In this document: in pieces, positions 3,583 through 64,000 of the stretch
Layout: every line of letters starts with the position of its first letter
Position numbering within the stretch: position 1 is the stretch's first letter
NCBI GenBank assembly: GCA_038087875.1
Contig: CM075988.1
Span: 18,974,001-19,038,000, forward strand
Reading direction: 5' to 3'
Source of the DNA: Malacoraja senta
Taxonomy: Eukaryota
Length of the DNA stretch: 64,000 nucleotides
The notes under the pieces: generated by a model
Told to the model about the DNA's origin: nothing
Database searches by the model: none
Seen by the model: the letters and a program-made list of their open reading frames with translations, nothing else
Position numbers and translations under genes: made by a program

Positions 3583-5499
3583 GACCCCAGATAGCTACAG
3601 TTGAGAGGGCTTTGATTGGCAGATGGATGGACAGAGGCCAGAGAGGTCGTGGACAAAAGGCTGTGAGATATGAAGACAGCAGAAGGGGCGTAGGTGGGAG
3701 GGAGCAGGGGGGAGAGATATAGATGGGAGCAAGGGGAAGGCAAAAGGGGGGAGGGGGTGGGGGTTGCAATAGTGGGAGTTATTTTCCTTTCTGACACTAC
3801 TTGTTCTGTTGTAATGTTTGCTGTGGGAACATCTTTATATGGACTCAGTGGGTCAAGAAGGTGGCTCAAGGCATATCTCGCAATAGATGTATTTCCTTGC
3901 CAATAACCCCCACATCTCAAGGACCTGAGCATAGGGTCAGTTAGGCTAGGACTTTAATCCTTGGAGCACAGAAGACTCAGGGGCGATCATATGGAGGAGT
4001 TTAAGACCATGAGAGACTATGGATGCACAGAGTCTTTTTCTATCATCTTCACAAAGCCATCAAGAATGCCAAGAGACAATACCAAGGCAAACTTGAGTCC
4101 CAGTCTAATCATTTGGATATCTGCAGACAGTGGCAAGGTCTGAATACGATAACTGGCTGCAAAGTGACCGCTCTTAAAGACCCTTGAAACTCCGCCAGCA
4201 TGTTTGCCGCCATCATCACTCCTAGCTCTCCGGTGATTTCTACATTTCTGAAAACTGCAACTGCAAGGAATTGCAGATTATATATTGCAGTAAATATAGC
4301 CCAGTCCATCACACAAAGCTGACTTCCTACCATTGACTCCATCTAAACTTCACGCTGCCTCGGAAAAGCAGCCAACATAATCAAACTCGTCGTATCCCAG
4401 TCACTCCTCCTTCTCCCTGCTCTTGTTCGGCAAATGTACAGAAGCTTAAAAGCACGCACCGATGTACACACACTATCAGACGCAGTAAGAGCTTCTTCTC
4501 CTGTTATCAGGCTTCTGAACTCCTTCGATAAGCAAAGGTTACTGTCTGATTCACCTCAACCCCATGGTGGACATTGGACTTTGTGTTTGGAACTGATGCG
4601 CTACAATGCTGAGAACTATATCTCTGCACTCTGTATTTTGCCTTTTGCTCTGTAATACTTGAACTGTTTGTATATATATATCTGATCTGTTTTGGACAGC
4701 ATGCAACACAAAGCCTTTTACTGTACCTCTGTACACGCGACAACATTAAACCTAAACAGAAACATAAACAGATCAGACAGCATCCACGGCAAGAGAAACA
4801 GGGTTAGAGTTCCAGATTGATCACCTTTAAAACACTGAAGTAACAGCGGGGTTGTTAGCCTTTGCATTATCTCACATGCAGCACCTGTGTTTTCATGTTG
4901 GCTACATCTGTGAAGCCCAGATCCATCTTCCTGGGAAGACTAATGGTCTCTGGATACAGAGATCGAAACAGCAACAGGCCAGTAAAACTGAGCCATACCT
5001 CTTTCTCCCTGCAGCCAATTAATGAAATACTAAAGACTGAAAAATAGAGTCTTGGCAGAGATACTATCATTTGTTTCGGGAGAAAGAGAGAAATGTTGTT
5101 TTTTGTTTGGCTCAAGGCAAAGGAAAACCGCTGACCTGTACTTGGAGAGAAAGTCTCTCTCTCCTACTTAATAAATGATGAAATAACCGCTCACCTAATG
5201 TTATCTGGTCAATGGAAGTAGATATACCATTATGTCTGATTTCATACTCCCTGCATGGTTAGATTGACTCCTTGGGCTAATGACATCCATTCTTCTTCTT
5301 CTTTCGTGTGGCGTGCACAGCCTAAAGTTGCTGGACAACTTGTTCTATTTGATCTTCCGTTTGTGCACGTCGAGTTGATTGCATTAGTCGAAACAGGGCG
5401 GACCAGGTGAAGGTTGCAATCTTCCACCCCATGACATCCATTGTTTTTATAGAACACAGCAGCACAGATCCAATCCACTCAACACAGCATCACTGGAGA

Positions 5500-5782
5500 A
5501 AAGGATGTATATTTACGAAGGAGATGAGGAGGAATTTCTTTAGTGAGAGGGTGATGAATCTGTGGAATTCATTGCCACAGAAGGCTGTGGACACCAAGGC
5601 AGTGGATATTTTTACGGCAGAGATTGACAGATTCTTGATTAGTACGGGTGTCAGGGGTTATTGCGAGAAGGCAGGGGAATGGGGTTCAGAGGGAAAGATA
5701 CATCAGCCTTGATTGAATGGTGGAGTAGACTTGATAGGCCGAATGGCCCAATTCTGTTCCTAGAAATTATGAATTATGAACT
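5500..5782 (+). mobile_element. CR1 LINE 3' end
   Basis: EMRRNFFSERVMNLWNSLPQKAV motif. Confidence 0.85.
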
Positions 5783-6329
5783 CCATCAGACTGAAGAAGG
5801 GTTAGTCTTAGCCAGTCTTAGAAGGATTCCGACCCAAAACGTCACCCATCCTTTTTCTCCAGAGATGCTGCATGACCCGCTGTGTTACTAGAACACTTTG
5901 TGTCTATCTTCAGTATAAACCAGCATCTGCAGTTCCTTTCTGCACACCACTTATTTACGACCCTTTGCTCAGCCTGGTCTGAGAGTCAGGTCCATGTTTC
6001 CATCACATCTGGAAGTTATCATAACTTACATGAGTCCCCATGCTCCCAATAGTCATGGCATTTGTCAGCTCACATGCAATCCGTCTTGGAAAGGCAAACC
6101 AGACCCATGCATCTGTCAAAGGACCAAGATGAAGACAAATCCTTTTTTTCTTTTTGCAGCATCATCCCTCTTGAAATCCTCAGATCTAGACTTTAGCAGA
6201 TTTTTGTTTATTTTTCTTCCTGTTCATCTGCGGTTTCAGGCTAGGATAAGCCCTAAAGGAGAGATGTTACTGCAGTTTCCAGAATAAGAAATAGGGCAGA
6301 CATTTGAGAACGGGATAAGAGTCTAACAT

Positions 6330-7140
6330 CAGGCAACATGGAGAGCAGTTTGAGAAGAGGGGTGGTGAATGCAGAACTGAAGGTAGTTACAGGTATATTT
6401 GAGTGCGTGCAGTGTACGAAACAAGGTGGATCAGCTTAGAGTGCAGATATAAGTCGGCAGATACCATGTTGTGGGCATCACACAGTCGTGGCTGAAAGAG
6501 GATCAGAAATGGAGCTGAACATACAAGGACACATATCCTTTCACAAAGGCTGGCAGGTGAGCAGAGGGGTGGGGTGGCCCTGCTGGTAAGAAATTAAATC
6601 CAATCTTCAGCAAGAAACGACGATGGATCAGATGATGTAAAATCCTTGTGGGTAGAGTTAAGAAACTGCCTTGGTAAAAAGATCCTGACGGGAGTTATAG
6701 ACAGTCTATGGAGCCCACACTTCCTGAGGTCATCTGTTACCGGCCCTGTTTTGTGCTGGCCTTCTCTATCCTTCAGTCTGAAGAAGGGTTCCAACCCAAA
6801 GTGTCACCCATTCCTTTCCTCCAGAGATGCTGCCTGACCCGTTGAGTTACTCCAACACTTTGTGTCAATTTCCATATAAACCAGCATCCGCAGTTCCTTC
6901 CTACACCCAGATGGGAGTTATATATAGGTCTCGGAATAGTAACCAGGATGTAGGACATAGAAAAGGCATGTAAGAAAGGCAGTGTTGCAATGGTCAAGGG
7001 GATATCAATGTGCAGATAGACTGGGAATATCAGATTGGTACTGGATCCCAAAAAGAAGGAATTTGTGGAATGGCTCTGAGTTGGGTTTTTAGAGCAACTT
7101 GTGGTTGAGCCCATTAGGGAAAAGGCAGTTCTGGATTTGT
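6330..7140 (+). mobile_element. Degraded CR1 LINE ORF2 N-terminus (AP endonuclease), interrupted by a Penelope-derived insertion at ~6700-6910
   Basis: Relic translation VVGITQSWLK...GVALLVRN...SLWVELRNCLGKKILTGVI. GGGAGTTATA duplicated around the insertion. Confidence 0.75.
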
Positions 7141-7917
7141 AACCTCCTGGTGAGAGGATGGTTCAGTTGCCTGATAAGAGCTGGGAAGAAACTGTCCCTG
7201 AACCTGGAGGTTTGCGTTTTCAGATTTCTGCACCTCTTGCCTGATGGGAGTGCGGAGAAGAGGGAATGACCGGGTTGAGACTGGTCTTCTCTCTTTTAGA
7301 AATGCTCATCCTTTATGCTGTTGTTTTTTGTGTGTGTGCAGTTCAAAAGTTACGTCTCAATCCGTCTGCAGATTGTATATCCGTCACTTCGCAAGATAGC
7401 AGCATGAAGACAGTGCTTCTCCAAGCAGATTCTGTGACATGTTTTAAGATGAATGAGTTTCATTTGGAATATTTAATGAAACATTTGTTTCCAGATTGGA
7501 ATATAACAATTTAGAAGCTGTGCTATTAGACCGTAGATCTTCTGCATCATACACTGTTGAACCAGTCACTTTGTTCCTTGTCATATGACCAAAAGCATGT
7601 ACGATCCATCCCTGACTGTAGCTAGCAACATCCCTCATGGATCCATTGGGCAAATAATGTTAATGATTAACAACACAATGAGTGCTGACATTTCTCCTCA
7701 CTCCCATTCTGAATGTTCAACCCTCTTATCTCAAGGCAACATCACTTGGTTTGAACTCTCCAGCCTGAGAAACACCACTAAAAGATCCCTCTCACGGTCA
7801 CCGCTCAATCTTCTGAGCTTTGGTGAGTTTACAACAATCTTACTCTCTTCAATCTCCCATAAGACAGAGGAGTAGAATTAAGAATTAAGTCGTGCAGCCC
7901 ATCAAAATCTGCTCTTC

Positions 7918-8799
7918 GTACGACATACGTACGACATACGCTTATCCAATTTAAAACATTACATAGATTATATTATTCAAAAACCAAACTAAATAAAATC
8001 TTTCCTAACGTCTCACCAATCTGTGATAAATGTATATGTCAAGAAGCTACCATAGCACATTCTTTTGTTTTTTGTACAAAAATCCAAAAATTCTGGTTTG
8101 AAATATTTGATATTTTTTCAAAATTAATCAAAATAAAACTGGTACCAAAACCAGAATGGATTATTTTTGGAATATCGGAAGGTATTCCTGAATTAAACGT
8201 GTATCAGAAGAATTTACTCAATTATGGGCTAATAATGGGAAAAAAGCTTATACTTAAATTCTGGAAAAATGCGCCCACACCAACAATAAAAATGTGGACA
8301 TCAAATATGTTGGAAACATTACATCTGGAAGAGATGAGATTCCTCCTAGTAGGCAAAGTAGACCAATTTCAAAAGACGTGGTCTACGTTTTTGGACCTAT
8401 TACAAGCATGAGGTGCAATAGTAATTTAGAAAAACAAATAAATAAATAAAAGGTATCTGGACCTGGTAATGGGAGGTAAAATAAAAACAGACTTGGTTGG
8501 TAGTTCCTTCTCTATGAAGTATGGTATAAGAGTTATAATAGAGCGATTGTTCCTTCTTTCTTTCTCTTTCTTTTCTAGGGTCTATTTTCTAACTTTACTT
8601 CCTTCTCTAACTTCTTTTCTAAGGGGCTTTCTTTTCCCAACACTCTTTTGCACTTCACAACCTTTGCGCACTTTCTTCACTTTTCTTACTTCTTTCTTTT
8701 TCTTTCTTAAAGTTTAAAAAAGTGAAGCGGTACAAAAAATGTATTAATATATACGTGTTGTACATTACTGTAATCTACCGTACTTCTATTAAAAAAATT

Positions 8800-8837
<38 letters not shown>
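7918..8837 (+). mobile_element. 5'-truncated L1-clade LINE with ORF2 C-terminus, 3' UTR and poly(A)
   Basis: Open frame 7941-8411 LIQFKTLHRLYYSK...CDKC...H...C...W (Cys-rich L1 C-terminal domain). A-run 8804-8837. 14-bp TSD AAAATCTGCTCTTC (7904-7917 / 8834-8847). Confidence 0.92.
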
Positions 8838-8841
<4 letters not shown>

Positions 8842-9339
8842 CTCTTCAATCTCCCATAAAACAGAGGAGTAGAATTAGTCGTTCAGCCCATCAAAATCTG
8901 CTCCACGATTTGATCGTGCCTTCTCCCTGTAAACTTTGACGCTCTTCCTAATCAAAAACCTAGCAATTTCCGCTTTAAAAATACCCAATGTCTTGGCCTC
9001 CAGACTCCTCCCACATACCAAAGACACAGGTTTGTAGGTTAATTGGCTTCAGTAGGTTGTAAATTGTTCATTGTATGTAGGATGTTGCTCGTAAACGGGG
9101 TGGTTGCTGCTCGATGTGGACTCGGTGGGCCGAAGGGCCTGTTTCCGTGTGGTATCTCTAAAGTCTAAAGTCGCAGCCGCCTGTGGCAATAAATGCATTA
9201 TGCATTCTGGTGTATCTGTACCATAAATATATAGACAAGACTAAAACTGTATGTGCTGCTTCAAATAATGTTTCAGCAGACACCTGGATATTTGTAGTAC
9301 GGCTAAAACCTGAATTAATAGCACAGTAAGTAACTTTAG

Positions 9340-9655: not shown

Positions 9656-9756
9656 TGGATTACATAATTTAATGCGATCCAAAATTTGATCTTCTCCCTC
9701 AAAAGTGTCGCGACTGCCCCGAAGTTCAATGGTTCAATGATTCAATGGTTCTTTAT

Positions 9757-10230
9757 GTATAAGAAAGAATTTTGAGGTGCTGTTCCTCCAATTTGCGTCC
9801 TCTATTGCATCCGCTGCTCTAGGTGTCAGCTGCTCTACATCGGTGAGACCAAGCGCCGGCTTGGCGATCGCTTTGCCCAACACCTCCGCTCAGTTCGCAA
9901 TAACCAACCTGATCTCCCGGTGGTTCAGCACTTCAACTCCCCCTCACATTCCGAATCTGACCTTTCTGTCCTGGGCCTCCTCCATGGCCAGAGTGAGTAA
10001 CAGCACAAATTGGAGGAACAGCACCTCTCCAATTTCAGGTAGTCCTTGCTTTCTCCCCCCTTCCCCTCCCCTTCACCGCTCTCCCACAGTCTACTGTCTC
10101 CACCTCTTCCTTTCTTCCCCCCCCCCCCGACATCAGTCTGAAGAAGGGTCTCGACCCGAAACGTCGCCTATTCCTGCGCTCCATAGATGCTGCCTCACCC
10201 GCTGAGTTTCTCCAGCTTTTTGTCTACCAG
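9757..10230 (+). mobile_element. Penelope-like element 3' fragment (GIY-YIG endonuclease relic and hammerhead-bearing terminal repeat)
   Basis: From 9803: YCIRCSRCQLLYIGETKRRLGDRFAQHLRSVRNNQPDLPVVQHFNSPSH. Short inverted piece at ~9773-9797. TSD TGGTTCTTTAT (9746-9756 / 10231-10241). Confidence 0.9.
10138..10165 (+). ncRNA. Minimal type-I hammerhead ribozyme core in Penelope terminal repeat
   Basis: CTGAAGA-A-GGGTC-TC-GACCC-GAAACGTC: CUGANGA box, helix II, GAAA box, palindromic ACGU, GUC cleavage triplet. Confidence 0.7.
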
Positions 10231-11576
10231 TGGTTCTTTATTGTCTATCACTTATGCACAGCAAAGTGAAATTCTTTAGCACAACCACAAATGCGCAGTC
10301 ATTGCAATTTTGGCACCGTTAAAAAAAAAGAAAATAAAGAAAAACAGGAAACACAGTGCAAATATTGTGAGAATTGGACTGTCAGATGCTTGCAATGGGG
10401 GACCCTGTGCAGTAGCTGAGACAATACATCTTTGTGAAAAGGTAATGAGAACATTATCCGCTATCCAATTAGGCCTTTCTCCGCCCGAAAAAGTTCAAAA
10501 GTGAAATCGTGAATTGCAAAATGCAAATTCTGCTTCTCTCCCATGTAACAATATCCCCGACTAAAATAAAGGAATGCAAATTCAAACGTTCAATTCTCAA
10601 TATGTAAGACAACTGGGTTTAATGTAAATGAATGACTGAAAGCGAATGATGATTAAATTGTGTAGTGATTGGATCAAGTACAGATTATTTGTAATTGTCC
10701 CAGTGAATGAAGTGACTCTATTCACTGACGGGATAGACGATCATCTATCTTACTTACGCCTGACTGGAGGATTTGGGACGGATATCTCATGTGCTCGACC
10801 CATTGGCAACCTGCTAAAACCTGCCACACTACACAACATCGAACATTTAATAGACGCCAAGTGCGGGAGTAACTCAGCGGGTCAACATCCCTGGAGAAAA
10901 GGAATAGATGACCCGTTTCGGGTCGAGACCCTTCTTCTGAAGATGAGTCTATCTTCCGTGTAAACTAGCAACTGCAGTTCCTTCCTGCACATTAAACATT
11001 TCATTCCAACTGCTAATTTTATATAACTTTCTATAATGCTGAATATCTGAGAAACATCAATTGGTGTTGCATCCAGAGCTATCTCTTTTGAAAATGAGCC
11101 TGCCAATCTCTAGAGACTGTGCTCAGGAGCTATCTATAGAGTGTAGTTTTCTGCTCACTAATGGTCTGCCCGCGTGAGAAGCGGTTCATGCATCATTTGA
11201 TAACTCAATTACATCTTGCATTCGAAAGCTAACGTACCGCTCAAGTTATCAAAACCCCTATTTTGCCAATGAACGTAACCCATTCTTTCCAATAGAGCAG
11301 AGTTTGTATGTTCTCCCCATAACCTGCATGGGTTTTCTCTGGGAGATCCAGTTTCCTCCCACAATTCAAAGACGTACATGTTTGTATGTTAATTGGCTTG
11401 GTAAAATTGTAAATTGTCCCAAGTGTGTGTAGGATAGTGTTTGTGTGTGGGGATCATTGGTCGGCATGGACTCGGTGGGTCGAAGGGCCTGCTTTCACGC
11501 TGTATCTCTAAACTAAACCAAACCAAACTAAACTAAACTAAACCAAACTAAAGCAGACGTTGCTGGAGAGGGTGGT

Positions 11577-13107: not shown

Positions 13108-13415
13108 AGGCGGCGCAGTGGTAGCATTGCTTCTTTACACCGCCAGAGACCTGGGTTCGATCCTGACCATGGGTGCTGTCTGTAAGGAGATTGATTGTTC
13201 TCCCTGTGACCTGCGTGGGTTTTCCCCCGGGAGCTCCAGTTTCCTCCCACGCTCCAAAGATGTACAGGTTTGTAGGTTACTTGGCTTCGGTAAACATTGT
13301 AAATTGTCCCCAGTGTGTGGGATGGTGCTAGTGTACGGGGGTTATCGCCAGACAGTGCAGACTCAGTGGGCCAAATGTCCGGTTTCCACGCTAAATCTCA
13401 AAAGTCTAAAGTCTA
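13108..13415 (+). mobile_element. V-SINE (HE1-like)
   Basis: Full-length copy with the same three-part structure. Confidence 0.9.
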
Positions 13416-14733
13416 GAGTCGTTAGAACTGAGCTCATGTCATCTTGGCCCTTCCCACGTACAGTGCCAGCCCAGAATAGCGGTGGCTACAAGTTGGTGTC
13501 TTTGTCTCCTGCCTAGGAGGTGATGCATGGCTTCAGAAGATTCAAAGTCTCCCATTCACAAGGGGCAATGACTAGCAAGAGCTATAGGGCCAGCTAATTC
13601 CCCACATGAGTTGTGGGATTCAGTCTATGACCAGAGGCACTGCTCAGGTCAGCCAACACTGCATTTGTTTTGCAGGATTGTTAATCAATTCATTGTTTAC
13701 TGGACTGCTGCCCTTTCATGGTCCTGCTGACTGGTTTACAGGGACAGAATGAGTCAAGGTTTGCTTTTACCGCGTGGAATTTCAGCATTTCCCTGGCCGT
13801 TACTGTTGCTTTGCATCATACCTGCAGGTAATTGCATTTTTTTCTGTTAATAAAAGTGTCAAAACAGTGGAATTACTCATTAAACCATATAACACATACA
13901 CAGAGTGCATGTGTCTGCTTTGGCTCAGTTAGTGCTTTTCTCGCATCTAAATCAGAAGGTCGTGGGTTCAACTCCCACTCAAGGATATGAAGAACTAAAA
14001 CCTGTAGGAGAACGTGCAAAATCCACACAGACAGCACCCAATGTCAGGAACGAACCCAGGTCCCTGGCGCTGTGAGGCAGCGGGTCCGCAGACGGCGTCG
14101 TTGTGCCGATGTTGCTATTCTGGGCGGTGCTGCAATTTGCCAGGCTGCTCTGTTCCAGCCTCATATTACCATTTAAAATGAACAAGTACTGACAACGTGT
14201 TAATGCCTGTCAAAGATATTGAGGCTCCAGCCCAGCACTCGGAGAACTCACTGAACATTTGTTTGTTTCACGCTGTACATCCTGCATCTTAATAAATAAT
14301 CTGTCACTTGGGTATTTTGCTAACTGTTGCCTTTCATTAAAATATATCTTGGTAGAATTCAGCAGCACATCACGCCGTGTCTTAGTGCGCACCAGGTTCT
14401 GGATTCACTTTCCACTTCCCGAGGAATTAGCAATTCAGGTTGTGCAGAATTCATTCCATTCCTTGCAACTCAACACCGGAGACCCATGGAATTATGCACT
14501 CAGCGCCAGAGAGTCAAAGTCATTCAACAGAGCCATAGAGCCATGCAAATAATTCCAGTCATAGTCATAGTAATACATAGTCACGGAGTCTTTCATTGGA
14601 GTCATAGAATAACGCAAGAGTCATAGAATAAAACTATAGAGACATATAACAGAGACATCAAGTCATAGACTCATACAACAGTCATAAATAGAGTCATTGG
14701 GTCACAGAGTCTTACTTAGTCATACAAATAATT

Positions 14734-14961
14734 TACACCCTAGCAGTATGAATATTGACTTCTCTAACTTCAGATAGCCCTTGCTTTCTCTCTCCATTCC
14801 TCCTTCCCAGTTCTCCCACTAGTCTTACTGTCTCCGACTACATTCTATCTTTGTCCCGCCCCCTCCCCTGACATTAGTCTGAAGAAGGGTCTCGACCCGA
14901 AACGTCGCCCGTTCCTTCTCTCCAGAGACGCTGAGTTACTGCAGCATTTTGTGTCTACCTT
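14734..14961 (+). mobile_element. Penelope-like 3' fragment
   Basis: HPSSMNIDFSNFR-type ORF end plus terminal repeat. TSD CAAATAATT (14725-14733 / 14962-14970). Confidence 0.85.
14879..14906 (+). ncRNA. Minimal hammerhead core copy
   Basis: Same 28-nt core as 10138-10165. Confidence 0.7.
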
Positions 14962-15146
14962 CAAATAATTCCAGTCCTTGCAACTCATCACTGGCGAGCC
15001 ATACAGTTACCTAGCCAGTGTCATGGAATCATAGAATGATACAGCACGGAAACTGGCCCTTCAGCCCAACCCGTCCATGCTGACCAAAATGCCCCATCTA
15101 AACTATTCCCATTTATCCGCACGTGACCCATATCCCTCTAAATCTT

Positions 15147-15496
15147 AAAGAACTTCAACTCCCCCTCCCATTCCGAATCTGACCTTTATGTCCTGGGCCT
15201 CATCCATGGCCAGAGTGAGGACCACTGTAAACTGGAGTAGCAGCACCTCATATTTCGCTTGGGTAGTTTGCATCCCAGCGGTATGAACATTGATTTCTCT
15301 AATCAGATAGTCCCTACTTTCTCATCCCCTTCTCAACTCTCCCTCAGCCCACTGGCTCCTCCTCTTCCTTTCTTCTTACCCCCCCCCCCAAACTCACATC
15401 AGTCTGAAGAAGGGTTTCGACCCGAAACGTTGCCTATTTCCTTCGCTCCATAGATGCTGCCTCACGCGCTGAGTTTCTCCAGCATTTTTGTCTACC
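15147..15496 (+). mobile_element. Penelope-like 3' fragment
   Basis: FNSPSHSESDL...HPSGMNIDFSN relic. 14-bp TSD TCCCTCTAAATCTT (15133-15146 / 15497-15510). Confidence 0.88.
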
Positions 15497-17156: not shown

Positions 17157-17584
17157 CTCAATCTAAACCTCAACTTGACAATATGACAAATTTTAATGTC
17201 TAGAAAAGAACTGCAAATGCTGGTTAAAATCGAAGGTAGATATAAAATGCTGGAGTACCAGGCAGCATCTCCAGAGAGAAGGAATGGATGACATTTCAGT
17301 TTAAGACCCTGCTGATCAGTCTGAAGATGGGTCTCGACATAAAACATCACTCATTCCTGCTCTCCAGATATGTTGCCTGTCCCGCTGAGTAGCTCCAGCA
17401 TTTGTGTCTACCTTTGACAAATTTTAACATTGGCACTGACAACTGGGAAACGGCTGCTGAGGACAAGGGGAGGTGGTGAAAGGACCTCCAGGCAGGTGTG
17501 AAGCAGCATCTGCTCAAAGACCATGGATGCCGGGCACCAACACCATAAAATGATCAATGGCAACAGCAACACACTCCCCATTCT

Positions 17585-20884: not shown

Positions 20885-21180
20885 ACGGTTGGGCAGCGGT
20901 AGAGTGAATGCAGCACCAGAGACCCGGGTTCGATCCCGACTACTGGTGCTGCCTGTATGGAGTTTGCACGTTCTCCCCATGACCTGCGTGGGTTTTCTCC
21001 GAGATCTTCCATTTCCTCCCACACTCCAAACGACGTACAGGTTTGTAGGTTAATTGCTTGGTAAATGTAAAAATTGTCCCTAGTGTGTGTAGGATAGTGT
21101 TAATTTGTGGGGACCACTAGACGGCGCGGATCCGGTGGGCGAAAGGGCTTATTTCCACGCTGTATCTCTAAACTAAACTA
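20885..21180 (+). mobile_element. V-SINE (HE1-like)
   Basis: B box GGTTCGATCC, V domain, CTAAA tail. Confidence 0.9.
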
Positions 21181-22172
21181 ATTATGCCAATTCAAAAACC
21201 TTCATAATTAGCCACAAAAAACAATTAGCCACTTAGTACTGGTGAACATAATCTCAGTTGATTATTTTTCCCACATCCTCTGATCTATCACTTGAACTGG
21301 ACAAAAAAATTTAGACAGATTTTTGGGTCTTCAAATTTTTGATGATTTTCCTCCTCTATTTAGCAGAGTGTTTTCATGTTACACTAATTACTATGTGTTG
21401 ATATGTGGTTAAGTGTCAAGAATCAAGTCAATGGTGTTTAATTGTCATAAGTACCGACAAGGTAATAATGAAATTCTTACTTGCTGCAGCTTAGCAGGTC
21501 TGCAAATGCAATAACTCACAGATAATATATAATAACAAGGCCAAGCGGGACCCGTTGTGTCCCTGTCACATGGAAGGGCTGGTCCCCGAATTCAATATTC
21601 CACCACCCACCCATAGCCCCCAACAGCGCAGGCTTGGCTGACGGGTTCCCATTGTGATGCCAGAGATCCCCGTTGTGACGCGACTCACGGCAACGCTCCC
21701 CAAGTGCGCCTCACCATCCCTCTTCCTACCTCTATCTTCCTCCATTCCCCCTCATCCCCAGAACTTCCTCCTCCTCCTCCTCTTCACCCTCCCTCTTCTT
21801 TCTCCTCTCCTCCTCCTCTTCCCCACCCACACCTCTCCCTCTGTCTCTTTTCCCCTACCCTCAGTCACCCTCCCTCCCTCCATATCCCCTCTCCCCTCCC
21901 TACCCCACTTGACATCATTGTGAGGTAGAAGCTGCTGTGTTTTTGAAAAGGAGGTTTTTTAAATGTAAATGAGATCCCATTGTGATGTAATTGTGGAGGG
22001 GAACACTGCTGATGGGCAGTTTACGTAAATGAGATCCCATTGTGATGTCATACGATGCTAACTGTAGTGCAGATGGAAGAGATTTTTGTTAAATTGTTTT
22101 TTGTAAAGTTTAAAATGTGAATAACTTGTAAAATATACCATCAATCTGAACAAAACGTGACTAATGCACACC

Positions 22173-22779: not shown

Positions 22780-22928
22780 TAAACTTTTGAGTAAACCCTA
22801 GACGTTTTGTGTACTTTTATAGGCTAATTGTGGCAGTGGTAGTCTGTTTGTGTAATCATTTTTTTCTGCTTTGCGGTTCTAGTAACCTGTTGTTTTGGCT
22901 ATTTTGGTAACATTTGTGAGCAGGAAAA

Positions 22929-24056
22929 ATGGAATTTAAGGTGGAAGAGTTTGTTGAGACGCCTAGCCTAGAGATGTTTCATCAATGTACTAAGGAAAAT
23001 TTAGTGTTGCTTGCAGATAAATATGGCGTTTCTATTAATAAACAGGCAAACAAACAGTCAATTAAGACGTTGTTATGGACTGCTTTAGTTGACCAAGAGG
23101 TGTTGCCTAGTAGTCCTGACAGTCATAAATCTATACAGCCAGTTCAGAACATGGAGGCCGTCATTAAACTGAAGGAGATGGAGCTTGAGTCACAGAGAAT
23201 GGCCTTAAAAAAGGATGAGCTCATGCATGTTCTTGAAATGAAACGGCTTGAGCTTGAGGAGGAAACCAAAAGGGCTGAATTTCAGCTGCGGGAGAAAGAA
23301 TTAGATATTTCCCGGTTCTCTTCTAAAGAGCATGAGTTTGATGTGAGCAGAAATATTCGTTTGGTTCCACCGTTCAGTGAAAAAGATGTTGATAAATATT
23401 TCACTTTGTTTGAGCGTGTGGCTATATCACTGAAATGGCCTAAGGGCGTGTGGACATTGCTGTTGCAATGTGTCCTTGTTGGTAAAGCGCGTGAGGTATA
23501 TTCGTCATTGTCTGTAGACAATAGCCTTGACTATGACATTGTAAAATCTGCCGTCCTCAGAGCGTATGAGTTGGTTCCCGAAGCGTACCGCCAAAAATTC
23601 CGGCGTTTCAGAAAATATGATAACCAAACATATGTTGAATTTGCTCGCGAAAAGGAGGCTCTGTTTGAACGCTGGTGTGCTTCTCAGGGGTAAAAGATTT
23701 TGCCCAGTTAAAGTCCTTGATGTTAATGGAGGATTTTAAAAACTGTCTTCCTGAAAGAGTAACAACATATCTTAATGAGCAGAAAGTCTCAGTCGTGTCT
23801 AAGGCCGCTGTATTGGCGGATGAATATGTGCTCACTCATAAAGCAGTTTTTGGGGAGCGATCCTCTGGTTTTAGTGGGAGACCAGTTGATCGTGGTGGTG
23901 TTGCTGGTAACGGTATAAAAACTTTTTCTGTGCCAGTTGATAGCAGCACTTCAAAGCAGTGGGAAGTCAAACCTGATAAAACTGAGTGATTTGGGGCATA
24001 AGGACAGTCCAATGTGTTTCTTCTGTAAGGAGAGAGGGCACATTTGTAAAACGTGT
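22929..24056 (+). pseudogene. gag: gag (SCAN-like capsid region and CCHC zinc knuckle), frameshifted twice
   Basis: ORFs 22929-23693, 23675-23989 and the start of 23937-27263 join across frame changes. Motifs IRLVPPFSEKDVDKYF...AYELVPEAYRQKFR and CFFCKERGHICKTC (24015-24056). Confidence 0.9.
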
Positions 24057-27000
24057 CCCATTCTTAAAAAGAAAAAAGCGGAGCCGGTGGTTTTGGTCAA
24101 CACACAGAAGGCACATGCAATCCCTGTGGTGCCTGAGACTGATGATTTGGTGGATTTGTCTCCTTTTGTCATGAGGGGTTTTGTGTCTATGGAGGGTGGG
24201 GACAGTAAAGTACCTGTGACAATCTTGCGTGATACTGCTGCCTCTCAGTCCTTCATTTTGGAAGATGTGCTACCATTTTCAGCTGAATCATCTGTTGGTT
24301 CTAGTGTCCCAGTTGTAGGGTTTGGTATGGAGGGCATGGGAGTGCCATTGCATACTGTTAACCTTGAGTCTGAGCTTGTTTCGGGTCGAGTATCTGTGGG
24401 GATACGGCCACGTTTTCCCATAAAGGGAGTGTCGTTGATTCTGGGTAACGATTTGGCTGGGGGAAAAGTTTTGGTCACTCCTGAAGTGACGCCTGTTCCT
24501 ATGTTGCAATGTCCAGATAAACATGCTGAGCAGCATCCCAAAGTTTTTGCATCATGTGCTGTGACTCGCACTATGGCTAGAAACCAAGCTACGTTTGATG
24601 ATGAAATTGACTTGAGCGAGTGTTTCCTTGTGGATCAGGATGGTGGATCCTGTGTTGCGCAGGGTGTGTCTGCATCACAAGTTGGTGAAATGTCTGAGAC
24701 TAAACCGGTGTCGTTGTCACGTGACCAGTTGGTTGCTGAGCAGAAATGTGATGCCGATTTGTCTGCTTTGATTGACAGCGCAGTGTCGGAGGTGGAAGTG
24801 GATTCCTTGTCAAAGGGATATTTTCTGAGGGATAACTTGCTAATGCGTAAATGGTCTCCTTTGAATGCATCTGGTCAGGATGACTGGAGCGTTGTTAAGC
24901 AGATTGTAGTGCCACATAGGTATCGGAATGAAATACTTACTTTGGCTCATGATAATCCTCTTGCTGGCCATTTAGGAGTTAATAAAACATACGACCGTAT
25001 ATTACGACATTTCTTTTGGCCTGGGTTAAAGAGGGATGTAGTGCAGCATTGCAAGTGTTGTCATGCATGCCAAGTAGCAGGTAAACCGAACCAGACTATC
25101 GTTCCTGCACCCTTGTATCCGATACCTGTAGTTGGTGAACCTTTTGAACGTATTATGATAGACTGTGTGGGTCCACTGCCTCGAACGAAAGCTGGCAACA
25201 AGTTTTTGTTAACCATAATGTGTGCATCTACCCATTTTCCAGAGGTGATTCCATTACAGAAGATAACTGCTCCCACTATAGTGAAAGCTCTTACTAAGTT
25301 TTTTTCCTTGTTTGGTCTACCTAAGGTGATACAAAGTGACCAGGGATCAAACTTTATGTCTAAAGTATTTGCTCAAGTGCTGAAACAACTAGACATCAAA
25401 CATTGTCATTCAAGCGCTTATCATCCTGAGAGCCAGGGCGCTCTCGAGCGTTTCCATCAGACATTAAAGTCTATGTTGCGTACGTACTGTCTGGAATTTG
25501 AGAAGGACTGGGATGATGGTGTTCATCTGGTGATGTTTGCAGTACGAGAGGTCGTGCAGGAATCTTTGGGTTTTAGTCCTGCTGACTTAGTTTTTGCCCA
25601 TACAGTACGTGGTCCTTTAAGAGTCCTAAAAGAAAAGTGGTTACAGGAAGAAACTAAACAAAATGTTTTGGAACACGTCAGTAACTTTAGATTTAGACTG
25701 CGGCGGGCATGTGAATTGGCTCTGGAAAATCTTGAAACTGCCCAGACAAAAATGAAAGAATGGTTCGATAAGAACGCTAAGAGCAGAGACTTTTTACCAG
25801 GTGACAAAGTTTTGGTATTGTTGCCAATTCCTGGGTCTAGTCTGCAGGCTCGTTATAGCGACCCTCGTCTGGTAGAAAAGAAAATGGGTGAGAGAGATTA
25901 CCTAATTGACACTCCTGATCGGAGGCATAAAAATCAGCTTTGCCATGTAAACATGCTCAAACGATATCACGAGAAAAAGGCTGTGGGTTTTGAATCGGAG
26001 ACGCTGTGTCCCACACTATCGTCCAAGCCTGTTTTGACTGCGATGGTGCTGCCCCCTGACACTGGTGCTGAAGTGGGTGAGGCACGTTTGTCTGTGGCTG
26101 TGACGCATGGTAAGCTGTCCAATTCTCAGGCGTTGAAAAAACTTCCATTGCGTTTGTCTCACTTGACTGAGAGTCATTGGAGAGATCTGATTACTTTGGT
26201 TGAGTCAAATAAGTCGCTGTTTACTGATGTGCCGTCTCAAACTTCCATTCTAAAACATGACATTGACGTGGCTGATACTAAGCCAATTAAACAACACCCA
26301 TATCGTGTCAATCCAGACAAGCGCCGCCGTATAAAGAGTCAGGTTGACTATATGCTGCAGCATGGCATTGCCGAGCCTAGCTGTAGTTCATGGAGCTCTC
26401 CTTGTCTGTTGGCTGCTAAGGCTAATGGTGACGACCGGTTCTGTACTGACTTTCGTAAGGTTAATAGCGTAACCAAAACCGATTGTTTTTCTCTCCCACG
26501 TACGGAGGATTGCGTGGATCGTGTCGGTAGAGCCTCTTTTGTCACAAAATTGGACTTATCGAAGGGATATTGGCAAGTCCCTCTAACTGAGCGTGCGAAA
26601 GAAATCTCTGCATTTGTTACATCTGATGATTTCCTTCAATATACTGTCATGGCTTATGGTATGCGTAACGCGCCGGCAACATTTCAACGGTTGGTAAACG
26701 TAGTGTTGTCTGGTCTGTCTTATTGTGAGGCATACCTTGATGATTTGGTTGTGTGCTCCAGGTCGTGGATCGACCACATCGACCACTTGACAGAGGTATT
26801 CAAACGACTCGCTCATGCAAACTTGACCATCAATCTTGGAAAGTGTGAATTTGGCCAGGCCACGGTAATGTTTCTTGGTAAAGTGGTGGGCCGGGGTCAG
26901 GTTCGCACTCTCCATGCAAAGATAGAGCATATTGTCGCGTTTCCAGCTCCTACCTCTAGGACTGAGCTCCGTTGTTATCTGGCAATGGTGGGGTACTATA

Positions 27001-27537
27001 GAGGGTTCTGTCCAAATTTCTCTGTGGTGGCTGCTCCTTTAACAGATCTGTTAAGTCCGAAAGTCATTTTTGAGTTGTCCGATGTGTGTCAAACTGTTTT
27101 TGAACAAACAAAGAGCCTTCTTGTGTGCGCACCCGTGCTTGCAGCACCCGATTTTGAACGGCCGTTTAAGTTGGCAGTTGATGCTAGTGACAGTGGAGTT
27201 GGTGGAGTTCTTCTCCAAGATGGTTCTGATGGGGTGGAACATCCAGTTTCATACATTTTTTAGAAAGTTTAATCGCCATCAGAAATGGTACTCTACCATC
27301 GTAAAAGCAACTCTTGCAATGTTAATGGCTCTGGATCATTGTGAGGTTTATGTTGGTTCCTCGAATGTTCCCGTCGTCGTATACACAGATCACAATCCGC
27401 TGGTGTTCTTAAATAGGATGAGAAATAAAAACCGCCGGTTAATGAGCTGGAGTTTACAGTTGCAGGGCTACAATCTGGAAGTCAGGCATATCCGTGGCAG
27501 GGATAATGTCTTGGCTGACGCATTGTCGCGCCAGTGA
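23937..27537 (+). pseudogene. pol: pol: protease - integrase - reverse transcriptase - RNase H, one frameshift near 27255
   Basis: LRDTAASQ protease (~24231); HHCC (~24948-25070); DCVGP / DQGSNF / ERFHQTLK integrase; YLDD at 26733-26744; DASD at ~27180. RNase H C-terminus (YTDHNPL...NVLADALSR) is in ORF 27070-27537. Confidence 0.95.
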
Positions 27538-28665: not shown

Positions 28666-31192
28666 GTACCCACCATATTAAATGAAGCAGATAATACTGC
28701 AAATATTTACTTGGTCAGATAGCATCGGAAAGAAACATCAATGATTTTGCATCAACACTAGGCTGTCAAATGCTGTCAACTGTTTCCACACCAAGAGCTT
28801 GCTTACCAAAGCCTAGTTTGGATTTTGTAAAGACAACATGACCCCAAACCTTATAGCAACCTGGGTTCGTTCCTGACTATGGGTGCTGTCTGTACGGAGT
28901 TTGTATGTTCTCCACGTGACCTGCGTGCGTTTTCTCCAAGATTTTCGGTTTCCTCCCACACCCCAAAGAGGTATGGGTTTGTAGATTAAGTGGCTTGGTA
29001 TAAATGTGTTAATGTGCGGGCATCGCTGGTCAGTGTGGAGGCGGTGGGCTGAAGTGCCTGTTTCCGTCCTGTATCTCTAAACTAAACCAAACTAAACTAA
29101 ACCTTTCGGCTGACCAAAACACTGATTGCTGGAGCTGAGCTGAGATTGTTCGTCTTGAACATCAAGGCACAGTTTGACCAGGAGTGGTTTCAATAATTCT
29201 TGGGACAGCTGAAGTAAGGAACACCAACAGAAAGACCGATCACTGGCTGGACTTATCCCCATCGCAAATGAAGAATGTATTGAAGGTAGACAAAATTGCT
29301 GGAGAAACTCAGCGGGTGCGGCAGCATCTATGGAGCGAAGGAAATAGGCAACTTTTTGGGGCCGAAACCCTTCTTCAGACTGAATTTTGTCTACCTTGGA
29401 TTCTCCAGCATTTGCAGTTCCTTCTTGAACAAGAATATATTGGAATTGAAGATCAATTGTCCTGGCATCAGAGCATCACTGCAGGATTACCGATCATCTT
29501 CTGTAGAGTTATGCATCTACTTGAGGAGCTGCCTCAAGAAGGTGGCTGTTATGATCAAAGATCCCCACCATCCCCACCATGTCGCCTGTTCACTGCTTTC
29601 ATTGGGCACGAGGTACAGAAGTCAAGAAGTTCAGGGACAGCTGCTTTCCAATATCTATCTGGTTCTTGAATCGATCTGCACAACCGCAATCCAACCTTGA
29701 CTTTGGACCACTTCTTGCACTCACTATGGACTTTTTTTCTTTTCTAATTATGTTTTTGCTTGTTCTTTGCAGTCTTCTTTCTTGAGTATAATTAGTTTTT
29801 TGTGTGCGCTGTCTGAGTCTATGTGCCTGTCTAAAAATTGTAAATTGTCCCAAGTGTGTAGGATGGCACTCGTGCATGGGGTGGTCACTGCTCAGCATGG
29901 ACTCGGTGGGCCGAAAGGCCTGTTTCTGCACTGTATATCTAAACTAAACATTTACCATCAGACTCTGGAACAGATTCTTCCCCTTTATTATCAGGCTTCT
30001 GAACGGTTTGTTCATAAGCTAGGGAACTGTACATTCACCTATACCCCATTGTGGACGTTGGACTATCTCTGGAACTGATGCTCTACAATGCTGACAACTA
30101 TACCATGCACTCTGTGTTCTTATCTATTTGCCATGTAATAACCGTCAATTTAAAAAAAAAACCTTCTGGTGATCGAATCCAAAATTAGGCTCATGACTTC
30201 AGAATGTTATTTCCAATGAAGACGCCAGGAGGAACAGCTCGTCACAGAGAGCGCTGGCATGAATGGTAAAGGGCTTTAAAGAGGAAACTGGGTGAGCAGT
30301 TAAAGGAGAGGGAAATAGTTGGATGTACCGAGAAATGAAGGATGCAAGGAGATAGGTGTGGAGCATAAGGTCCATCAGACAAACCAACCTCCCTTCAATT
30401 GACTCCATTGGCAAGGCCAGCGACATAATCAAGGACGAGTCGCGCCCTGGCCACTCCCTCTTCTCCCCTCTCTCATCAGGCAAAAAGGTATAGAAGTGTG
30501 TAAACGCACACCACCAGATTCGTGGACAGTTTCTTCCCAGCTGTTATCAGGCAACTGAATCATCCTACCACAAGCAGAGAGCAGTGCTGAACTGCTATCT
30601 ACCTCTTTGGTGACCCTCTGACTATCCTTGATCAGACTTTGCTGGCTTTGCCTTGCACTAAACGTTATTCCCTTTCGTGTATCTACACACTGTAAATGGT
30701 TCGATTGTAATCACATATGACCTTTCCGCTGACTGGTTAGCACGCAACAAACCTTTTCACAGTATCTCAGTACACGTGACGGTAAAATAAGCTGAACTAA
30801 ACTAAAGGTCAGGAAGAGATCTGATAGACCAGTCAGCCTCTCCCTCTGCTCTGCAGTTCAGACAGCGATCCAATCAATGTTCATTGATGTTTCCTTTTGC
30901 AGAAAGTAACTTGTTGGATTTTCCGGAACGTTAATATTTAAAGTCATTTCTGTTACCATCGTTTTATTATGATAACAGGATACACATTTCAAAACATGTT
31001 CATCCATCAAAGAGCACAGATCTGTTGGGCCAGAGTTTATATTGAAGATTATCATCTCACCCTCTCCCACCATGAGATACAATCTTCCTTTTAACCACCA
31101 AAATATTAATTGAAATAACTTTGTTCGCCAAACAGCCAGTGTTATCGATCGCGGGAGCAGCTGTATGATTCATACATACACTAGTTCAGGCC

Positions 31193-40566: not shown

Positions 40567-42439
40567 CTAAAAATAACAGATGGAAAAGAAAAAATAGGAA
40601 TGTCAGAGCAAATGTGGGATATTTTAAGTTTTACACGGTTCTATGTCTTACTGGACAAAATAGTCATTACTATAACTCAATGTGATATGATCTTTCTTTG
40701 CTAACTGAGGAAAATAAGTAAGATGATAGCTGGCAAAAGGCTGTTAGACTAAAGACGATTTATTAAATTTAGGTGACACTTTCTGATAGTATTATCAAAG
40801 TTCAACGCTAAGAAGCTACATGTTTATTTTCATTAGAAGTTAGGTGGTTGGACACTGCCATTGTCCAGCGGCACATATCGGGAGCGGCCGGCAATGCTCT
40901 CCGCTGGTCTAAATGAAGCCAGTGCTAAGAACTCTCTCGAAGTTTGCCACCATCAACGGCAGATGCATCCCATCCACCGCCTTAGACATTCATTCTTTCC
41001 ATCACGGTGGCTACAGTGTAGCTCATGGCAAAAGGTGGATTGTGTTCTGCTCAAGGTCTCTTGACAGCATGTTCCAAACCCATGACCTATTTCACCAAGG
41101 AGGACACGGTGGCTCGGCGGTAGAGTTGCTGCCTTACAGCACCAGTTACCGGGGTTTGTTCCTGACTATGGGCGCTGTCTGTATGGAGGTAGGTTCCTGG
41201 ATTGCATTTCCAGGGGTGGTGGTTGAGGTAGGTATGATAGTGGAATTTAACAGACTTTTGGCTTTTGATATGCAGGGAATGGAGGGATGTGGATTATGTG
41301 GATTATGTGCAGGCAATTAAGTGTTCGTCTTGGCATCATGTTCAGCACAGACATTACAGGCCAATGGTGTAGGAAGGAACTGCTGGTTTAAACCGAAAAA
41401 AAGACACAAAATGCTGGAGTAACTCAGCGGAACAGGCAGCATCTCTGAATAGAAGGAATTGATGAAGTTTCGGGTTGAGATCCTTCTTCAGACTGACTGT
41501 CTTACAGGCCAATGGCCCTGTTTCTGTGCTGTACTGCTCTATGTTCTATGTACTATGTTTTATATTGTAGTTTTTGTATGAAATGAGAAACAGGAGTATT
41601 ATTCAATGGATAAAACATCAGAATTGATATTAAACGTTACCTATTTCCTTCGCTCCATAGATGCTGCTGCACCCGCTGAGTTTCTCCAGCATTTTTGTGT
41701 ACCTTTGATATTTGATATTAATATTGATCTCTATGTACAACATCTTGAAACCAAAATCCCACACAGAATTTAGATTACCTTGCATGCCTATGATTACCTA
41801 TGTCTGTACATTGCAGTCTGTTCTCACAAACTGTGCAGTTTAAAGATACAGCATGGCAACAGACCCTTCAGCCCATCGAGTCCATACCGACCATCGATCA
41901 CCCATTCACACCAGTTCCACATTATCCATTCACTACACACTAACGGCAATTTACAGAGGACCGATTAATCTATAATGGAATGTGGGAGGAAACGGGGGGC
42001 ACCCAGAGGAAAGCCACGTGGTCATAGAAAGAACATGCAAACTCCGCGCAGACAGCACCCTAGTTCTGGATTGAACCTGCGTCTCTGGTGTGGTGAGGAG
42101 GCAACTCTACCGTTGTGCCATTGTGGGGTAATTTCTATATTCATTTTTTATAACTTTTAATTCTCTGTCAAATTATTTATCTATGTACCTTTATAGTTAC
42201 CGATGCAGAGCTAACAACCTGTTACTATTTTCCACAAACAAGGGATAGCTTTTCAATGCGACAACGTTGCAATTTGCTGGGGGACTGAGGACTGAGAACC
42301 AAGTTAGACCCTGTCTGGAACAATGCAGAGTAGATAATTATTCTCCTCATCCAGAAGGTGAATCCAATGCCTTGGCTGTGGTCTGAATCCTGAAATGACA
42401 AAAAGAAATGAAAAGCAGATGTAACTAGTAAGGCGTAGG

Positions 42440-45126: not shown

Positions 45127-45335
45127 AGATAGACACAAAAAGCTGGAGTAACTCAGCGGGTTAGACAGCATCTCTGGAGAGAAGGAATAGGTGATGTTTC
45201 TGGATCTGAGGAAGGGTCTCAACCCGAAACGTCACCTATTCCTTTTCTCCAGAGATGCAGTCTGTCCCGTTGAGTTACTCCAGCTTTTTGGTTCTATTTT
45301 TGGTTTAAACCTGCATCTGCAGTTCCTTCCTACAC
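45127..45335. mobile_element. Penelope-derived short element as an inverted pair
   Basis: Minus arm (AGACACAAAAAGCTGGAGTAACTCAG...) followed by plus arm (...GAAACGTCACCTATTCC...GAGTTACTCCAGC). Confidence 0.8.
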
Positions 45336-51499: not shown

Positions 51500-51960
51500 T
51501 CCACACAAAATTCTGAAGTAACACAGAGGGACAGGCAGCATCTCTGGAGAGAAGGAATGAGTGATGTTTTGGGTCAAGATCCTTCCTCCGACTGAGAGCC
51601 AGGGGAGAGGGAGTCTAGAGATATGGAAGAGTAAGGTGTGAAAATGACTGATCAAAGCAGACGATGATGAAATGTAGAATGGTTCATTGTTAGCTGAGGG
51701 GAAGGTGACAAGGAGGCTTATAACCAGTAGAATTAAACAGGACAGTGAAACTACAAGTCAGGGTGGGGAGGGATGGACAGAGAGGGAAAACAAGGGTTAT
51801 TTGAAATCAATATTCATACCACTGGGTTGTAAGCTGCCCAAGCAAAATATGAGGTGCTGTTCCTTCATTTTGCGTTGGACCTCATTCTGACAGTGGAGGA
51901 GACCCAGGACAGAAAGGTCAGTATGGGAATGGGAAGGGGAGTTAAAGTGTTTGGAAACCA
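51500..51960 (-). mobile_element. Penelope-like 3' fragment
   Basis: ORF 51797-52117 contains KHFNSPSHSHTDLSVLGLLHCQNE...QPSGMNIDF, followed by the terminal repeat. Confidence 0.85.
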
Positions 51961-58429: not shown

Positions 58430-58640
58430 AGGCAGACAAAAGTGCTGGAGAAACTCAGCGGGTGCAGCAGCATCTATGGAGCGAAGGAAATAGGCAACAT
58501 TTCGGGCCGAGACATGAAGAAGGGTTTTGGCCCGAAACGTTGCCTATTTCCTTCGCTCCATAGATGCTGCTGCACCCGCTGAGTTTCTCCAGCACTTTGT
58601 CTCCCTTCGATTTTCCAGCATCTGCAGTTCCTTCTTAAAA
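58430..58640. mobile_element. Penelope-derived short element as an inverted pair
   Basis: GCTGGAGAAACTCAGCGGGTGCAGCAGCATCTATGGAGCGAAGGAAATAGGCAAC mirrored by its reverse complement. Confidence 0.8.
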
Positions 58641-62619: not shown

Positions 62620-62845
62620 GTAATAGGAAGGAACTGCAGATGCTAGTTTATAGCAAAGATAGACACAAAGTGCTGGAGTAACTCGGCGAGTCAGGCAGCA
62701 TCTCTGGAGAAAAAGGATAGGTGACGTGTCGGATTGGGACCCTTCTTCAGACGGTCTGAAGAAGGTCCTGACCGGAAAGTTCACCTATCCATTTTCTCCA
62801 GAGATGCTGCCTGACCCACTGAGTTAGTCCAGCACTTTGTCTCGC
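62620..62845. mobile_element. Penelope-derived short element as an inverted pair
   Basis: Arms meet at CTTCTTCAGACGGTCTGAAGAAG. Confidence 0.8.
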
Positions 62846-64000
62846 TCTTTTACATAGGGCTGAGACTGCATTCGGCTTTTCTTTCAGAAATTTGTTAATA
62901 CTCAGCACTTTATAAATAGATGCACCGCTCTATAAATAAATGTCCTATTCAATGTTAGCAAGGGCCCTGTAGGATCAAGAGCTGTACGGTGTGTGCTGTA
63001 TACGTGACCTAGCTGGGATGGAGAAGACGGGTCTATTTTGGACCGGATAAAGTACTGCATAAAATAACTAGGCCAGGTCGTATTCGGCTGCAATCAGGTC
63101 AACCTTAGGTCATGTTATAATTATACATCTAAGCAAATTTTTCCTTCAGTTTCTCGATTAACATTATACAATCTAGCAGCCCAGTTATAGACAGCTTTGT
63201 AATGCTCCCTGCGTATGTCGTACACAGTGCTCTCTTTATTGGTTTCTAATACTGAATTAATTTAATGATTGTGGCAAGGATCAATGGATAACGACACTTT
63301 GTGAATCAGAAGTAACAAGGTGGTGCAGTGATTATGAGCCTGGGCTAGTTCTACAACATAGACCATAGAACAGTAGAGCACAGAACAGGCCCTTCGGCCC
63401 ACAATGTCTGTACCGAACAAGATGCCAAGCTAAATTAGTCACCTCTGCCTGCCCACATAGCCCTCCATATCCATGTTCCTACCGAAAAGCCTCAAAACGC
63501 CACTATCATATCCGCCTCCACCACCACTCCTGGCAACATGTCCCATGCACTCAGCACCCTCTGTGTAAAAAACACAGTTACCCCATGTAACCCCAGGGGC
63601 AGCACAGTGGCACAGTGGTAGAGTTGTTGCATTACAGTGCTTGCAGTGCCGGAGACCTGGGTTCGATCCTGACTACGGGTGCTGTCTGTATGAATGAATT
63701 AATAAGTTTATTGGCCAAGTATGTACACATACAAGGAATTTGCCTTGGTGCTCCGCTCGCAAGTAACAACACGACATACAGTAAACAATAAAGAATAAAA
63801 CATTAAAACATTAAAAATTTAGAATAAAACATTACAGTTTAAACATGTGAATGAAATAAAATACTAGTGCAAAAGGAGGCTACAGACGTTCGGTTTTTGA
63901 GTAGAGCTACTACTCGTGGGAAAAAGCTGTTTTTACGTCTGGCTGTGGCAGCTTTGACAGTCCGGAGTTGCCTCCCAGAGGGAAGTACTTCGGAGTTTGC

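Follow-up and report, generated by a model that had tools for sequence, protein, structure and literature searches.

We consider it likely that the largest of the repeat families listed for the 64-kb stretch of DNA analysed here (the window) represents the 3' end, or pseudo-LTR, of a Neptune-like Penelope-like element (PLE), that its minimal hammerhead motif was selected in the source elements and would act, if at all, only as a dimer, and that most of its copies are short cDNAs made by the element's own protein which have since decayed neutrally. The element type, the presence of minimal hammerheads, mostly solo, in Penelope repeats, the tail, the inverted ends and the duplications are already published; two 3' ends, the pairing of long with short ends and a sharp 5' start are new here beyond the preliminary description of this DNA, and the latter two features likely record how the element is copied. 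Seen as a ribozyme, the module is ordinary and only adds a further family to the Penelope elements known to have a minimal hammerhead; what makes it useful is the trace it keeps of the mechanism, with the smallest insertions showing both ends, both start sites and the apparent RNA 5' limit within 250 bp. The literature searched gave no description of the module family, nor of a twin-priming reading for Penelope; Repbase and Dfam probably list the family, and supplements of PMC4209133 and of bioRxiv 10.64898/2026.07.22.740005 may do so.

The repeat family and its source element

A profile built from 13 window copies recovered 52 module segments on both strands, in 37 groups that together span 5,006 bp (7.8% of the window) at a density of about 0.6 loci per kb, i.e. 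approximately one locus per 1.7 kb; the reversed window, used as a control for this profile, gave no segments. The pattern CTGANGA-N(1-30)-GAAAC occurs 14 times against 1.38 expected from the shuffled window, with 13 matches belonging to the module family and one, at 60023, lying outside it. The 28-nt module start is found at 24 places in the window with at most 5 substitutions, and is identical at 10138, 14879, 31331 and 51079, the four positions at which the preliminary description had called it intact. That description had also reported a module of ~100-150 nt recurring many times on both strands; the recurrence is confirmed by the profile, but the length resolves into two, about 100 and 135 nt.

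Three module subfamilies can be distinguished, of which A and B each contain both short and endonuclease-linked copies. On average the module copies differ from their subfamily consensus by about 10% outside CpG and by 24-29% within it, so they are not recent. Copies at 31311-31511, 43250-43539 and 58297-59108 lie within or directly beside older copies of the same family. If the density observed here holds genome-wide, the family would be a major, and probably mislabelled, part of skate genomes.

In 4 of the 37 groups the module is joined to a GIY-YIG relic: upstream of each of these four copies comes a pyrimidine-rich UTR and, before it, the last part of a GIY-YIG endonuclease gene (Table 1). 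Attachment at three loci had been described previously and stands; the fourth piece (14712-14768) had been missed, and the extent of the first locus, formerly given as 9757-10230, is corrected to 9757-10227, between the target-site duplications at 9743-9756 and 10228-10241. At this locus the UTR (10039-10136) opens with a GT resembling a splice donor, close to where the ORF stops, and closes with a pyrimidine tract and CAG directly ahead of helix I, like the intron of the D. virilis element.

The relic at 9791-10027 is 84-89% identical to Leucoraja proteins, with further best relatives in Rhinoraja and sharks, which points to a skate or other batoid as the likely source of the window. The nearest skate and shark proteins carry, in this order, a reverse transcriptase (RT), a CX4CxxC linker and, at the C terminus, a GIY-YIG domain, the linker being seen in the closest relatives (P0001, P0003 and P0009); a CX2-5CxxC linker between RT and endonuclease is given as the mark of Neptune in PMC8557442. 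The window relics end before the linker and no RT gene was found in the 64-kb window, so the Neptune assignment rests on these relatives. RT lies upstream of the endonuclease in the shark relatives and at 33 of 79 related metagenome loci, and the endonuclease is C-terminal in its ORF and upstream of the terminal repeat, as in endonuclease-positive PLEs. Judged by its relatives' linker, the source element was likely an endonuclease-bearing Penelope-like retrotransposon of the Neptune clade, and the Penelope-like origin proposed in the preliminary description is supported by both the GIY-YIG relics and their protein relatives. One zebra-shark protein reads on into a peptide resembling the hammerhead's own translation, a faint hint that the link between endonuclease and hammerhead may be old in elasmobranchs.

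Table 1. Positions of the hammerhead motif, module copies and other repeats in the window (.: copies on both strands).
Feature	Position	Strand	Basis or remark
Minimal type-I hammerhead motif	10136..10167	+	Sequence, subfamily invariance, covariation with distant relatives
Helix I	10136-10137 with 10166-10167	+	Sequence
Hammerhead core	10138-10144	+	Sequence
Bulged A	10145	+	After A9, before helix II
Helix II	10146-10149 with 10154-10157	+	4 bp, G10.1-C11.1
GAAA	10158-10161	+	Sequence
Palindromic helix III, no loop	10161-10164	+	Sequence
Predicted cut	Between 10165 and 10166	+	Motif mapping
Left target-site duplication	9743..9756	+	Matches 10228-10241, 11-nt exact core
Inverted long (tail) 3' end remnant	9757..9769	-	12/13 bases as tail end of 52191 copy, by eye
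Inverted endonuclease gene piece	9774..9795	-	22 nt identical to reverse complement of 10006-10027
GIY-YIG relic	9791-10027	+	Pfam match to PF01541 above the cut-off (E 5e-5); truncated at the 5' end, with a C-terminal deletion and one in-frame stop
Pyrimidine-rich 3' UTR of pseudo-LTR, ends TCAG	10028..10135	+	Common to copies at 14879, 15404, 52320
3' module part to short 3' end	10168..10227	+	End fixed by duplication; 3'-end clusters
Right target-site duplication	10228..10241	+	Matches left duplication
Head-to-head: short-end copy (-) and tail-only piece (+) at 10944-10990	10848..10990	.	Profile segments
GIY-YIG piece	14712-14768	+	Endonuclease C-terminus
Copy with endonuclease C-terminus, UTR, intact motif at 14879	14712..14960	+	
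GIY-YIG relic	15142-15309	+	Linked to copy with motif at 15404
Short-end copy joined to endonuclease relic; 14-bp duplication; motif at 15404 intact, with a GUU site	15149..15496	+	
Head-to-head pair, long left, short right, 13-bp duplication	17198..17412	.	
Head-to-head: short-end copy (-) and tail-only piece (+) at 29385-29430; 12-bp duplication, one mismatch	29283..29430	.	
Solo long-end copy, 14-bp exact duplication	41367..41498	-	
Head-to-head pair, short left, long right	45127..45335	.	
Older copy, endonuclease relic, longer UTR	51503..51958	-	
GIY-YIG relic	51958-51803	-	Linked to older copy 51503-51958
Head-to-head pair, short left, long right	58430..58640	.	Nested in inverted insertion 58297-58999 with 16-bp duplication
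Head-to-head pair, long left, short right	62623..62852	.	
SINE-like copies	9046-9171, 11300-11521, 13116-13411, 20893-21181, 28864-29090		
SINE-like copies	36157-36447, 42453-42725, 57310-57603, 59716-60005, 60876-61155		

The hammerhead motif in source elements and copies

Minimal hammerheads, mostly solo, have been described in Penelope repeats including those of fish Neptune elements (Cervera and de la Pena 2014, PMC4209133), and the window sequence maps base for base onto the minimal motif given there, sharing with those motifs the lack of loop 3, the palindromic 15.2-16.2, the bulge between 9 and 10.1 and the G10.1-C11.1 pair, as well as location in a terminal repeat and occurrence mostly as solo copies with some opposite-strand pairs. 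The core CUGANGA, GAAA and UH elements are invariant in the three subfamily consensuses and present in relatives, and helix III reads ACGU in all three subfamilies and in 19/19 alignment rows (5 window copies and 14 relatives). Across subfamilies the core is better conserved than its flanks, the reverse of what the preliminary description had named as telling against the motif: none of 11 core columns differs among the three subfamilies, as against 23 of the 85 other columns (p 0.04), and polymorphic columns number 0/10 in the core and 28/71 elsewhere (p 0.013). Such subfamily differences as do fall within the motif affect loop 2, the H17 base or are pair-preserving.

Rfam gave no hammerhead match at the gathering score over the whole window, and on 10080-10260 with E up to 10 only chance matches, none of them to a hammerhead; as the Rfam models describe canonical hammerheads, this null result is not counted against the motif. 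An exact motif scan of metagenome contigs likewise gave no matches, and 32 motif candidates in viral contigs yielded none that was confirmed. The 79 metagenome loci encoding relatives of the endonuclease (44-62% identity) include 69 with at least 350 nt of downstream sequence, and among these the same core follows the endonuclease match within 800 nt in 36, compared with one of 69 on the opposite strand; RT lies upstream in 16 of the 36. Helix I, which was outside the search filter, has at least 2 bp (2-5 bp) in 34 of these 36 relatives. Both inner helix I pairs are flipped between the window copies and the relatives, and at two helix II pairs both partners differ. When 5 window copies were aligned with 14 of the 36 relatives, picked by hand and with the two of helix I below 2 bp excluded, 6 of the 8 pairs of helices I and II change on both sides, giving 31 cells against 10.3 when shuffled (0/500 shuffles as high), counts that are inflated by kinship; among the window copies alone no pair changed on both sides.

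The conserved core in relatives, together with these double-sided pair changes, indicates that the hammerhead structure was selected in the source elements, and the minimal type-I hammerhead with palindromic helix III recognised in the preliminary description is thus borne out by invariance and covariation. The flipped pairs also show selection on a helix I of only 2 bp, and this speaks for a genuine function in the source elements, probably with the help of a protein. In six of the relatives (L011, L034, L047, L049, L050 and L067) likeness ends just past TTTT-AGTCTACC, about 100 nt after the motif; this stretch resembles the short end of the module, and a downstream stem is common to them.

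Individual copies behave differently from their sources. Selection on single copies was considered and rejected: the raw divergence of the core, 4.4% as against 10.3%, ceased to stand out once polymorphic and CpG columns were removed, leaving 19/386 changes in the core and 117/1855 in the flanks (p 0.35), and copies therefore decay neutrally after insertion. The full motif is intact in 7 of 35 copies and helix I, already described as weak in most copies, is 2 bp in most of those in the window, as in D. virilis but shorter than the 4-5 bp of the Schistosoma families in PMC4209133.

In folding models the active dimer reaches -6.1 to -6.7 kcal/mol, whereas competing folds lie at -22 to -57, i.e. 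the dimer is 15-50 kcal/mol above them, and in 6 of 7 tries a single-copy fold had no advantage in stability over shuffles. In the consensus fold, 10146-10149 (the 5' strand of helix II) is paired with 10166-10169, after the cut site; this alternative helix is kept in 21-23 of 24 copies per pair and might represent an "off" fold. Given the 2-bp helix I, the disfavoured active dimer and the competing consensus fold, cutting of naked RNA by the predicted ribozyme is doubtful, in keeping with the earlier caution about activity. As reported in the respective sources, minimal hammerhead motifs cut poorly (PMC4209133), 1 of 9 Xenopus dimers cut (bioRxiv 10.64898/2026.07.22.740005) and the ribozyme of PAc, the green anole Poseidon element, needs the element protein (Frangieh et al. 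2024, PMC11167929).

These results bear on the retrozyme model proposed in PMC4209133, in which the ribozyme drives the family, dimers self-cleaving and ligating to circles that template insertion. Conservation of core and helices over great distance would suit such a model, as would the intact motifs at 14879 and 15404, 525 nt apart on one strand, but copies do not begin at the cleavage site, neither head-to-tail tandem units nor a head-to-tail hammerhead array is present in the window, the active dimer is energetically disfavoured, and insertion of PAc is described as independent of cleavage (PMC11167929); we regard this model as very improbable.

Insertion anatomy and the origin of the copies

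The 52 segments have their 3' ends clustered either at profile columns 96-114 or at 134-138, with about 35 nt between the clusters. Target duplications scoring at least 10, of 10-20 bp, flank 17 of 45 ends and none of 60 random places, inverted pairs being counted twice in this figure and at least 2 of the 17 matches being internal to the element. Twelve loci are inverted and head-to-head, and in all eight with readable outer ends (9757, 10848, 17198, 29280, 45119, 58297, 58427 and 62623; assigned by eye, with 4 loci unreadable) one outer end is long and the other short (chance about 0.004). End clusters and long/short pairs together amount to a one-sided tail of 30-40 bp. Both arms belong to one subfamily in 9/9 pairs (three labels by eye) and are more alike than other copies in only 5 of the 9. 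At two loci (10848 and 29283) the RNA is divided almost neatly between a tail-only arm and a short-end arm, the outcome expected of two primers acting on a single template. Separately, within 14453-14990 a 20-bp near-repeat encloses the 14712-14960 copy and 240 bp rich in AGTCAT; this may be a single insertion that captured DNA, or else a local repeat arising by chance.

We infer two-ended priming, the start site and any role of the ribozyme as follows. The element protein would bind the RNA near its 5' end and nick both target strands about 12 bp apart, and reverse transcription would be primed at a short or a long internal RNA site, as for PAc in vitro. With an RNA that starts a few bases upstream of the core, copying from the first two sites would run off the 5' end to give a copy of 100 or 135 nt; priming from both nicks would give an inverted long/short pair, and priming in the downstream repeat the longer endonuclease-bearing copies. 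The template would be uncut RNA, making the ribozyme a passenger in these copies.

In LINE-1 twin priming both target nicks prime cDNA, leaving an inverted 5' part between duplications; in the mechanism proposed here, unlike that of LINE-1, both priming sites would be fixed internal RNA sites, and the arms mostly overlap. Inverted ends and a one-sided tail have so far been explained, in the literature consulted, by endonuclease resolution or self-priming. Fold-back self-priming on an antisense template, instead of two target nicks, was proposed for rotifer elements from junction palindromes (PMC3846280), and the junction at 62749-62756 is indeed a short palindrome and in 5 of 9 pairs one arm is closely related to the other; it gives, however, no reason for long and short ends to abut the duplications and leaves the tail-only arms at 10944-10990 and 29385-29430 unexplained, and we judge it unlikely. 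The further idea that hammerhead dimers join two different RNAs for twin priming was rejected, because the arms are of the same subfamily in 9/9 pairs and Naiads are reported to form the same structures without hammerheads (PMC8557442).

All boundary counts come from the single 64-kb window. Among 34 core-spanning copies scored (one segment starting mid-core was excluded), 19 start between -6 and +2 of C3, where about 1.6 would be expected from the rate of truncation within the module, and one further copy starts at that boundary with a deletion; upstream of the core, 14 of the 34 have pyrimidine-rich sequence, two of these being also short by their duplications, and 12 or so continue into the UTR. 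At most 3 of the 52 segments start within 3 nt of the cleavage site, which was accordingly rejected as the origin of 5' ends. That copies start just before the core and not at the cut argues for insertion of an uncut RNA whose beginning likely lay immediately ahead of the core. The best-supported rows for contigs of four other runs include joints at 10133-10136 where the strand switches, and loose ends on the upstream side at 10132-10136; some loose ends carry AT-rich, unlike flanks, and part of those at 10132-10133 are the UTRs of other subfamilies.

The boundary might alternatively reflect random 5' truncation of Neptune insertions, its sharpness arising where pyrimidine-rich UTR sequence ceases to align or where RT stalled at a C-rich tract. 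Heavy 5' truncation is usual for such elements according to PMC8557442 and PMC8969392, 15 of 50 segments do start within the module, and apparent 5' boundaries are inflated by a UTR that is of low complexity and not the same in every subfamily. Most boundaries are, however, set by an inversion junction or a duplication and not by alignment, and the starts at -6 to +2 precede the C-rich tract (from about -10), leaving this explanation decidedly unlikely.

The RNA 5' end a few bases upstream of the core is probably a transcription start at TCAGT at the module boundary, which we take to resemble the initiator consensus. TCACT is noted for a rotifer element in PMC3846280, and Penelope promoters are described as internal in PMC2377424. 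The boundary may instead come from splicing, since pyrimidine tract and CAG resemble an acceptor, as in D. virilis, in which an intron separates the hammerhead from a start situated well upstream (PMC2377424, PMC4209133); against this, the short copies show no shared upstream exon, and a 10038-10137 joint is absent among the 15 joints listed (219 others being unlisted). A spliced join would not lengthen helix I.

An internal promoter would also suit a different history, in which short modules form a non-autonomous element of their own, SINE-like or a solo retrozyme, that has its own RT start sites, is itself transcribed and is recopied in trans by Neptune protein. The sharp 5' boundary fits this history, as do the solo copies at 41367, 53870 and 56094, each with its own duplication, a summed contig depth that in two large runs is about 4-7 times as high over the module as across most of the endonuclease (depth, not copy number), and the non-autonomous derivatives proposed in bioRxiv 10.64898/2026.07.22.740005. 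Subfamilies A and B, however, mix short with endonuclease-linked copies, 12 or so of the 34 copies run on into the UTR, and the same boundary is expected from full-element transcripts; we find this history rather doubtful. The suggestion in the preliminary description that the terminal repeat had spread as a short ribozyme-bearing family likewise stays a conjecture, as does a part of the ribozyme in that spread: copies start upstream of the core and not at the cleavage site, decay neutrally after insertion, and have the ends, tail and duplications of ordinary Penelope insertions.

Extending the preferred reading, in which the copies are cDNAs made by the element's own protein, we advance only tentatively, and on balance doubt, the idea that batoids hold on the order of a million "strong-stop" copies of 100-135 nt, running from the two start sites to the pre-hammerhead start, with inverted long/short pairs as the trace of twin-primed insertion in which each nick primes at one of the sites, and that the unit, having promoter, ribozyme and start sites, recopies as a Pol II hammerhead-headed SINE. 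If true, this would constitute a huge natural dataset for the unsolved mechanism of Penelope insertion.

Relation to known elements and other features of the window

As far as they are described in PMC8557442 and PMC3846280, Neptune PLEs share with the present family the C-terminal GIY-YIG, the zinc linker (here that of the relatives), 5' truncation, an inverted 5' copy, the one-sided tail and duplications of about 10 bp; unlike them, most insertions here retain no more than their final 100-135 nt, in many cases as an inverted pair and nothing else, and microsatellite targeting was not seen at the loci in the window. In PAc, two internal RT start sites define the tail, both strands are extended and uncut RNA is used (PMC11167929). 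The arrangement here is similar, with a hammerhead about 100 nt upstream of two putative RT start sites whose spacing equals the tail, as read from sequence, and insertion from uncut RNA, as judged from copy starts; PAc differs in belonging to another clade and in having its ORF start at the hammerhead, whereas the core here lacks an ATG.

Non-LTR retrozymes, reported in one cartilaginous fish in bioRxiv 10.64898/2026.07.22.740005, are likewise short, non-coding, hammerhead-bearing and pseudo-LTR-derived with many monomers, but are defined there by head-to-tail hammerhead units, whereas the pairs here are head-to-head. The module density in the window may be set against the 4,000-9,000 motifs per genome given for coelacanth and Xenopus in PMC4209133, figures that are counted differently, most copies here lacking an intact motif.

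A second abundant family of the window resembles a SINE of tRNA origin with short TAAAC or TAAAG repeats at its end. Open stretches of 257 and 1114 aa at 22920-27537 are of Gypsy-type LTR-retrotransposon character, with an integrase-like ahead of an RT-like region, an order that we take to be Gmr1-like, and a 182-aa open stretch at 7863-8411 resembles the C-terminal part of a LINE ORF2. Finally, two adjoining tandem arrays, of 30-bp units (7.7 copies) and 41-bp units (6.7 copies), occupy 44045-44565.
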